From the sequence record PV295200.1: a stretch of 64,000 bases of DNA; one strand, given 5' to 3'. The stretch comes from Escherichia phage vB_Eco_BCPEco_001. A program made the translations under genes and the position numbers. Under the pieces are notes generated by a model. It searched no databases. It saw only the letters and a list, made by a program, of their open reading frames with translations, and was not told the DNA's origin. Of this stretch, positions 61,553-62,557 are shown piece by piece (position 1 is the first letter of the stretch; each line of letters begins with the position of its first letter).

Positions 61553-61560
61553 TATAAATA
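61553..61560 (+). promoter_or_regulatory. late promoter TATAAATA (gene e, distal)
   Basis: Exact box 27 bp upstream of e ATG. Confidence 0.7.
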
Positions 61561-61565
61561 CCTTC

Positions 61566-61573
61566 TATAAATA
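61566..61573 (+). promoter_or_regulatory. late promoter TATAAATA (gene e, proximal)
   Basis: Second exact box 14 bp upstream of e ATG, tandem with the first. Confidence 0.6.
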
Positions 61574-61586
61574 CTTAGGAGGTATT

Positions 61587-62081
61587 ATGAATATATTTGA
61601 AATGTTACGTATAGATGAAGGTCTTAGACTCAAAATCTATAAAGACACAGAAGGCTATTACACTATTGGCATTGGTCATTTGCTTACCAAAAGTCCATCA
61701 CTTAGTGTTGCTAAATCTGAATTAGATAAAGCTATTGGGCGTAATTGCAATGGTGTAATTACAAAAGATGAGGCTGAAAAACTCTTTAATCAGGATGTTG
61801 ATGCTGCTGTTCGTGGAATTTTGAGAAATGCTAAATTAAAACCAGTTTATGATTCTCTTGATGCTGTTCGTCGCTGTGCATTGATTAATATGGTTTTCCA
61901 AATGGGAGAAACTGGCGTAGCTGGATTCACTAACTCTTTGCGTATGCTTCAACAAAAGCGTTGGGATGAAGCAGCAGTTAATTTAGCTAAAAGTAGATGG
62001 TATAATCAAACACCTAACCGCGCAAAACGAGTTATTGCAACGTTTAGAACCGGAACTTGGGACGCGTATAAAAATCTATAA
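61587..62081 (+). CDS. e: endolysin, T4 lysozyme
   Basis: 164 aa [39 protein letters not shown]...; identical to recalled T4 lysozyme except about two residues. Confidence 0.97.
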
Positions 62082-62085
62082 AGTT

Positions 62086-62115
62086 GTTTACTTTCTCCTA
62101 GAATTGTGATAGTAT
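62086..62115 (+). promoter_or_regulatory. early promoter (denV)
   Basis: GTTTAC, 18-bp spacer, TAGTAT, about 25 bp upstream of denV ATG. Confidence 0.6.
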
Positions 62116-62140
62116 ATTCACAGTTACTTGGAGGGATAAA

Positions 62141-62557
62141 ATGACTCGTATTAATTTGACTTTAGTATCTGAACTTGCTGATCAACATTTAATCGCAGAA
62201 TACCGTGAATTGCCGCGTGTTTTTGGTATAGTTCGTAAGCATGTGGCAAACGGTAAGCGCGTTAAAGATTTTAAAATATCTTCTAAATTTATTTTAGGTT
62301 CTGGTCATGTTACTTTCTTTTACGATAAGTTAGAATTTTTGCGAAAGCGTCAATCGGACATTATAACGGAATGCTTAAAACGCGGGTTCAGTATAAAAGA
62401 TACTGAAGTTCCTGACATCAGCGATATTCCAGCAGAATGGAAAAATGATTATAACCCATGCAAATCGGCTATTAAATTGAGTCAACAACGACTCGATGAA
62501 AAAATTTTAATGAAGCCACACTGGTATAAATACTACGGCAAAAATATTTACATTTAA
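62141..62557 (+). CDS. denV: endonuclease V, pyrimidine dimer DNA glycosylase
   Basis: 138 aa, [28 protein letters not shown]...WYKYYGK matches recalled T4 EndoV; early promoter upstream. Confidence 0.9.

Follow-up and report, generated by a model that had tools for sequence, protein, structure and literature searches.

The e-denV segment of Escherichia phage vB_Eco_BCPEco_001: a common T-even allele with a T4-like lysozyme leader and a probable promoter-early stem-loop cassette

In a 64,000-nt stretch of Escherichia phage vB_Eco_BCPEco_001 (record PV295200.1; the whole stretch is called the window here), the lysozyme gene e is followed directly by denV, the UV-repair gene for endonuclease V. 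This is very probably an ordinary nudE-e-denV-vs.8 segment of a T-even genome close to phage SHFML-11, in a common allelic form that combines the translational switch of gene e, a promoter-early stem-loop (PeSL) cassette and a plastic internal-protein (ip) locus. The local order on the + strand was nudE, e, denV and a vs.8 homolog. An earlier note on this DNA, made from the sequence alone, had placed ipII and ipIII between e and denV in T4, and the T4 map (NC_000866) agreed, with the order nudE, e (66503-66997), ipIII (65834-66415), ipII (65416-65718), denV (64939-65355) and vs.8. The adjacency that the note had read in the window also held, as no open reading frame (ORF) with an ip signature was found in the gap between the two genes. 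Thus, e adjoins denV because ipIII and ipII, carried there by T4, are absent.

The frequency of this arrangement was estimated in GenBank phage records with a 141-bp probe spanning the 3' end of e, the spacer and the 5' end of denV. The junction was contiguous in 239 records, with 96.5-100% identity in nearly all sampled rows, and the carriers came from many hosts and submitters and included the classic isolate RB51 as well as pSs-1, Ac3, fPS-90 and NBEco003. When the whole e-denV stretch was used as query, both genes were found in one place in 273 of 591 records, and the first 25 of 60 evenly sampled rows were single 971-bp matches, RB68 included. Few alleles are as common among sequenced T-even phages as this one, in which e adjoins denV. 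The window itself belongs to Tequatrovirus, and its best matches were SHFML-11 (Shigella), vB_Sen_BCPSen_003 (Salmonella) and vB_Shso_BCPShso_001 (Shigella), at 98.8-99.5% identity. No record identical to the window was found among these or other matches, indicating that it is another isolate of the same e-denV group. An adjacency of this kind might also be produced by assembly collapse between repeated cassettes, or be a deletion mutant selected during propagation; T4 readily loses ipIII in the laboratory through recombination between short homologies (PMC9391042), and the promoter cassettes are repeated sequences. However, the uninterrupted junction in 239 records, RB51 among them, and the same contiguous e-denV in RB68 effectively refute this explanation, and neither simple deletion nor assembly collapse could produce the divergent denV allele described below. 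We regard it as extremely improbable.

We then asked where the ip genes of this phage are. The search for ORFs with a capsid-targeting sequence (CTS), which the earlier note had proposed, gave only two in the window, at 54473-54730 and 54807-55040, both just downstream of 57B (53941-54399). The second one showed the MKTYQEFIAE-like N-terminus, ending in a gp21 L/I-x-E cleavage site, that marks T-even internal proteins. No ORF with a CTS was found between 61587 and 63243. When T4 IPI, IPII and IPIII and RB27 Ip4 were compared by tblastn with the window and the complete SHFML-11 genome (170.65 kb), the CTS was the only part matched; for the mature bodies of IPII, IPIII and Ip4 no homology was detected in either sequence, with 10-19 residues aligned at E values of at least 0.04. 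The note had suggested that the phage lacks ipII and ipIII or keeps ip genes only at the 57B-proximal locus, and had named ipII or ipIII homologs elsewhere in the region as counter-evidence. The tblastn results and the two ORFs beside 57B fit the suggestion well, and no such homolog was found by tblastn in the window.

The functions of ipII and ipIII could instead have been kept, encoded elsewhere or by genes diverged beyond recognition. Internal proteins share only the CTS and are extremely diverse (PMC3012670), two uncharacterised ip genes are present at 57B, and SHFML-11 has a 54-amino-acid ORF (135135-134971) adjoining the DNA primase gene that starts with the CTS-like MKTFKEFIKE. On the other hand, tblastn with IPII, IPIII and Ip4 recovered nothing beyond the N-terminal residues, and Ip1, Ip2 and Ip3 of T4 are injected anti-defence factors, each of which inhibits a different GmrSD type IV restriction enzyme and gives no cross-protection against the targets of the others (PMC12373910). 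Such retention of function is therefore judged improbable. The 54-amino-acid ORF of SHFML-11 may encode a packaged protein that has been overlooked, or its resemblance to the CTS may be due to chance.

Two polymorphic ip loci have been described in T-even phages (Repoila et al. 1994, as cited in PMC4122927, PMC3012670 and PMC12373910). The 85-amino-acid ORF at 54473-54730 was 48% identical to the 93-amino-acid ip product encoded between e and denV in T-01 and SA79RD, indicating that one ip family can occupy either locus. In T-01 and SA79RD, this ip gene overlaps the end of e (ATGA). The ip content of the e-vs.8 interval varied between phages (Table 1), and the note was correct in calling the arrangement consistent with ip-gene plasticity among T-even phages.

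The denV gene of the window differed clearly from that of T4. Nucleotide identity between the two was 73% (77.5% at the protein level), whereas the flanks were about 94-100% identical. The window matched T4 at 93.9% over 60600-62130, and from about 62595, a little past the denV stop codon, most 40-nt windows were again 95-100% identical. The divergence was confined to about 62131-62560, beginning in the 3' arm of the PeSL and ending at the stop codon. Nucleotide identity was 96% to the denV allele of NBEco003 and 93% to that of T-01. The window type of denV is thus shared with NBEco003 and T-01, and the other type is shared by T4 and SA79RD (Mosigvirus). A simple deletion, by which a T4-like ancestor would have lost just ipIII-ipII, was considered and set aside, because it would not leave a 73% identical denV between flanks of about 94-100%; these values point to replacement of a whole module. 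Judged by its identity profile, denV is a sharply bounded mosaic module, and the comparison argues for an exchange of ipIII-ipII-denV (T4 type) for denV (type 2), or the reverse, whose left joint falls within the 3' arm of the PeSL and whose right joint lies where denV ends.

The spacer between e and denV appears to be the element at which such modules are joined. The earlier note had described a 60-bp spacer with an early promoter; the length proved to be 59 bp, and a sequence that fits the T4-type early promoter pattern was present, with the layout AGTT-GTTTAC-(17 nt)-TAGTAT and an inverted repeat around the -10 element. The spacer was homologous to the e-Ip4 spacer of RB27 over all 59 nt, the only notable difference being GGAGGG in the window and GAAGAG in RB27, and to the e-ipIII spacer of T4 over about the first 48 nt. 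By this alignment, it is the ortholog of the cassette that precedes ipIII in T4 and Ip4 in RB27. In ip-bearing phages, a conserved ip leader of about 35 nt (...AATTAAAATATTTA...AAAGGAAACAT) precedes the ATG; in the window, the denV ATG comes directly after ...GATAAA. In SA79RD, the same cassette (94.5% identical) stands between ipII and vs.8. Therefore, one cassette is found before ipIII (T4), Ip4 (RB27), denV (window) and vs.8 (SA79RD), as is expected of a PeSL at a hyperplastic boundary. In T6, e is joined to regB by a hybrid cassette, whose first bases are those of the e side and whose remainder is nearly identical to the T4 vs.3-regB cassette, indicating a deletion joint inside the shared GTTTACTTT. 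In this T6 interval denV and vs.8-vs.3 are all absent, and the e-Ip4-vs.8 order of RB27 likewise has no denV there. These two orders suggest that loss of denV from the interval is also a natural polymorphism.

PeSLs were introduced as a concept for T4-type phages, with the PST/T4 consensus TTTACW-N17-TAYWAT (Arbiol et al. 2010, PMC2839356; Comeau et al. 2014, PMC4122927). In these two papers, recombination between PeSLs is proposed to shuffle genes of hyperplastic regions, and the older ip-locus observations of Repoila et al. are cited. Following this model, the absence of ipIII and ipII would be explained by the hyperplastic nature of the ip locus between e and vs.8, where modules bounded by near-identical PeSL cassettes may be gained, lost and swapped by recombination between the cassettes. 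In the lineage of the window, the e-proximal PeSL is joined directly to the divergent denV module.

The opposite polarity was also considered, in which e-PeSL-denV is ancestral, T4 acquired ipIII and ipII later as inserted PeSL-bounded cassettes, and the phage studied here never had them. Every T4 ip gene has its own promoter cassette together with the conserved ip leader, as mobile modules would have; the ip slots differ, lying before denV in T4 and T-01 and after it in NBEco003 and SA79RD; members of a single ip family are found at both ip loci; and transfer by PeSL mini-circles has been suggested (PMC2839356). However, T4-type IPIII was found in 261 records and IPII in 198, with hosts that included Klebsiella, Citrobacter, Yersinia and Kosakonia, and homologs occurred in other groups as well (for example JS98, IME08, Citrobacter phage Moon, Yersinia phage TG1, Klebsiella phages). 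In several of these records (Moon, IME08, PWKp16, MY02, KM16), the IPIII/IPII match overlaps an annotated lysozyme gene, suggesting an old e-ip linkage. Moreover, the e-proximal cassette, which in T4 and RB27 stands ahead of an ip gene, is still present in the window spacer. The distribution across hosts suggests, without proving it, that the linkage is old and that the empty state seen here is a loss. We consider an ancestral e-denV order rather unlikely, and prefer the reading that the window carries one allele of a plastic ip locus.

The leader of e was nearly the same as that of T4. The note had reported two exact late-promoter boxes 13 bp apart before e, and both TATAAATA octamers were found where it had placed them, 13 bp from start to start and separated by a 5-bp gap. 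The window held 25 TATAAATA boxes on both strands (11 on the + strand), against 9.5 +/- 3.1 in shuffled sequences, and only about 0.03 same-strand pairs within 20 bp would be expected by chance. T4 late promoters depend on gp55 and gp33, are defined by the TATAAATA octamer at -10 and do not require a -35 element, and both boxes have this form. The T4 nudE-e spacer is TTTTATAAATACCTTCTATAAATACTTAGGAGGTATT, and the window version is identical minus one T, so that the two boxes correspond to the two known late promoters of T4. These were mapped immediately upstream of e (McPheeters et al. 1986, as reviewed in Uzan & Miller 2010, PMC3014915); the tandem late promoters of e are thus already known, having been mapped decades ago in T4. 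According to the same review, a structure in early read-through RNA of T4 hides the translation initiation region of e, late RNAs from either promoter lack the 5' strand of this structure and are translated, and identical leaders are found in T2, T6, RB18, RB26, RB32, RB51 and many T-even phages. In fPS-90, one 'predicted late promoter' box is annotated at the matching site.

RNA folding gave a consistent picture. The segment 61540-61600 folded with -16.2 kcal/mol (z = -4.3; 0 of 200 shuffles were as good), and both the Shine-Dalgarno (SD) sequence GGAGG and the AUG of e were paired with the 5' arm. RNAs begun at 61562 and 61575 folded with just -5.3 and -0.5 kcal/mol, respectively. The predicted fold therefore has the feature of a gene e-type translational hairpin, namely an SD and AUG paired with an upstream stretch that late RNA lacks. 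The two boxes would be gp55-dependent late promoters lying inside the 5' arm. Early read-through RNA would contain e yet be untranslatable, because the 5' arm pairs with the SD and AUG, and late RNAs, starting in or beyond that arm, would lose the hairpin and be translated. This timing switch has been demonstrated in T4; for the present phage we infer it from the near-identical sequence and the folding, and the use of the late promoters is likewise a prediction from the T4-like leader. A third + strand TATAAATA was found at 62525-62532, inside the 3' end of denV (codons W-Y-K-Y). T4 reads TACAAATA at the equivalent site, so this box is probably coincidental coding sequence and not a conserved late promoter of vs.8.

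The e-denV spacer showed a related organization. The predicted spacer hairpin extends over 62082-62146 and thus overlaps the promoter, as the stem-loop of a PeSL either does or adjoins it. RNA of 62082-62150 folded with -23.5 kcal/mol (z = -4.1), placing the -10 element in the loop and pairing the denV SD and AUG; the SD, GGAGGG (62130-62135), lies within the 3' arm. An RNA begun at 62116 had no such structure. Read-through RNA from e would thus fold and hide the ribosome site of denV, and possibly terminate, and RNA from the embedded early promoter, without the 5' arm, would be expected to express denV early. Given the position of the SD in the 3' arm, action on translation and action as a terminator are equally likely. 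An early promoter is annotated at the equivalent site in fPS-90 ('predicted early promoter') and in SA79RD ('similar to phage T4 early promoter'). In a 1986 T4 record (X04567), inverted repeats A-D are annotated as flanking a -10 before ipIII, ipII, denV and ORF 61.9, with the ribosome-binding site in the 3' repeat for denV and ORF 61.9, the latter being regB in NC_000866.

In the predicted folds, the pairing of SD and cassette was kept by four cassette types, those of denV in the window, in T4 and in T-01 and that of regB in T4. Their stem sequences differ, and the predicted SD-sequestering hairpins of the last three had -18.0, -17.8 and -23.1 kcal/mol. At ipII and Ip4, the stem-loop of the cassette does not reach the SD but closes well before it, leaving the SD unpaired in the predicted fold. 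We tentatively propose, with less than even confidence, that the denV and regB cassettes may act as translational insulators, a gene e-like switch built with an early promoter, beyond their promoter/terminator and recombination role. The anti-SD tract (CUCC) just after the -35 element would pair with the SD of the downstream gene, so that read-through RNA, such as late e transcripts that continue into denV, could not be translated and expression of the gene would depend on RNA initiated within the cassette. The free SD at ipII and Ip4 would fit this proposal, as these proteins are needed late too. Keyword searches of the PeSL papers found no mention of an SD in the 3' arm, and this aspect of the denV and regB cassettes may be under-described.

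Several observations weigh against the interpretation given here. The spacer fits TTTACW-N17-TAYWAT with TTTACT, 17 nt and TAGTAT, that is at 11 of 12 positions, and its -10 departs from the PST/T4 PeSL consensus at one position, having G for Y at position 3; TAGTAT is also the -10 of the orthologous e-ipIII cassette in T4. A generic sigma-70 promoter scan did not call the spacer site, because only 8 of 12 E. coli consensus positions match, and the early promoter call rests on the T4-type consensus, on orthology to the T4 cassettes and on the annotations in other records. No terminator was called in the e-denV spacer by a terminator scan, and the missing U-tract after the stem makes terminator activity doubtful. 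The use of the early promoter and the sequestration of the denV SD are both predictions. The whole-genome absence of ipII and ipIII was read from SHFML-11, a relative with 98.8-99.5% identity, rather than from the source genome. Finally, the direction of the event may be either loss here or gain in T4.

Table 1. Features of the window and alleles of the e-vs.8 interval.
Feature	Position	Strand	Description
ip gene, 57B-proximal locus	54473-54730	+	85 amino acids; N-terminus MKTFKEFATKTTITE (IPI-like); phrog_3499 'internal head protein', E = 1e-49
ip gene, 57B-proximal locus	54807-55040	+	77 amino acids; N-terminus MKTFKEFIAE; CTS regex match; phrog_8111 'internal virion protein', E = 8e-52
nudE (e.1), Nudix hydrolase	61095-61550	+	151 amino acids; 96% identical to T4 NudE; Pfam NUDIX PF00293, E = 5e-13
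RNA hairpin sequestering the e SD (GGAGG, 61578-61582) and AUG (61587-61589)	61550-61592	+	Late promoters in 5' arm; predicted fold
Predicted distal late promoter of e, exact TATAAATA	61553-61560	+	Exact octamer; leader T4-like
Predicted proximal late promoter of e, exact TATAAATA	61566-61573	+	Exact octamer; leader T4-like
e, soluble T4-type lysozyme (endolysin)	61587-62081	+	164 amino acids; 97% identical to T4 e; PF00959, 51.7 bits
PeSL cassette, e-denV spacer	62082-62140	+	59 bp; -35 GTTTAC 62086-62091; -10 TAGTAT 62110-62115 in hairpin loop
denV, endonuclease V (pyrimidine-dimer DNA glycosylase), divergent allele	62141-62557	+	138 amino acids; PF03013, 51.5 bits; phrog_1183, E = 1e-62
vs.8 leader, no ip gene	62558-62703	+	146 nt; relatively GC-rich; about 97% identical to T4 from just past the denV stop
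vs.8 homolog, 179-amino-acid form, downstream edge of variable segment	62704-63243	+	96% identical to C-terminal 179 amino acids of T4 vs.8; phrog_1488
Window allele			e / denV / vs.8
NBEco003 allele			e / denV / Ip4 / vs.8
T-01 allele			e / ip93 / denV / Ip4 / vs.8
SA79RD allele			e / ip93 / denV / three CTS-type ORFs incl. ipII / vs.8
RB27 allele			e / Ip4 / vs.8 (no denV)

The genes on both sides of the junction had the expected identities. The e product belongs to the T4-type lysozymes (PF00959) with catalytic E11, D20 and T26 all kept, and the denV product to the endonuclease V family (PF03013) with catalytic T2, R3, R22, E23 and R26 kept. At the position of the vs.8 leader, an inserted Ip4 gene of 474 bp follows denV directly in NBEco003 and T-01, and SA79RD has the first ~90 nt of the leader replaced by a PeSL. 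The leader was considered as a structured RNA and dropped, since its fold was no better than that of shuffled sequences (z = +0.5) and it is partly absent in SA79RD; a permissive Rfam scan of 61000-64000 gave no match. The vs.8 reading frame is unconserved, with 219 amino acids annotated in T4 and 195 in RB27; the 179-amino-acid form of the window is open from an internal Met, and the upstream parts are separate short ORFs (62591-62692 and 62655-62765). Upstream of nudE, the e.2 homolog (60625-61113, 162 amino acids) overlaps the nudE start, like those of RB27 and T6 (489 bp). T4 e.2 is annotated as 102 amino acids only, followed by a 161-bp gap in collinear DNA (93.9% identity, 3 gaps), and it looks like a truncated outlier. 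A vs.6 homolog was present at 63576-63938; the annotation of relatives names it autonomous glycyl radical cofactor GrcA. Compared with the surrounding phage DNA, the 3' half of the gene appears markedly more GC-rich, with E. coli-like codons, consistent with a host-derived module.

The observation of the earlier note is confirmed and its interpretation supported, and what the segment contains, from promoters and hairpin to cassette type and gene order, is already documented or present in hundreds of public genomes. The locus has little weight as a discovery; its practical value lies in annotation and in host-range prediction. Both Ip2 and Ip3 act against one particular GmrSD type IV restriction enzyme each, and T4 that has lost ipIII does not grow on ECOR17 (PMC9391042). 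Because ipII and ipIII are absent, the phage is predicted to be restricted by enzymes of the GmrSD-ECOR21 and GmrSD-ECOR17 types; it would lack the blocking specificities of Ip2 and Ip3 and carry others, and its two different 57B ip genes possibly confer resistance to other GmrSD types. The locus is also a clear illustration of PeSL-bounded module exchange, with one cassette before ipIII, Ip4, denV or vs.8 and a deletion joint in the T6 hybrid cassette.

Compared with known systems, the e leader (TTTATAAATACCTTCTATAAATACTTAGGAGGTATT-ATG) is that of T4 save for the one absent T; both TATAAATA boxes are shared, the predicted hairpin covers the SD and AUG alike, and there is no difference of substance. 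With the PeSLs of T4-type phages, the spacer shares the combination of a predicted early promoter with an inverted repeat, the location in a hyperplastic region and the position at a variable-gene boundary. It agrees with the PST/T4 consensus in the -35 element and the spacing (TTTACW-N17) and differs in the G instead of Y of the -10 and in a stem without a U-tract; in addition, its 3' arm holds the SD of the downstream gene. As at the T-even ip loci described before, the loci are found beside 57B and downstream of e, the ip content varies among close relatives, and the genes are recognised only by the N-terminal CTS. The e-proximal locus is empty in the window, both before and after denV, whereas it holds two ip genes in T4, one each in NBEco003 and RB27, two in T-01, and in SA79RD the 93-amino-acid ip before denV and three CTS-type ORFs after it. 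SHFML-11, RB51, RB68, pSs-1, fPS-90 and NBEco003, among others, have the same e-denV arrangement as the window, in the same annotated order.

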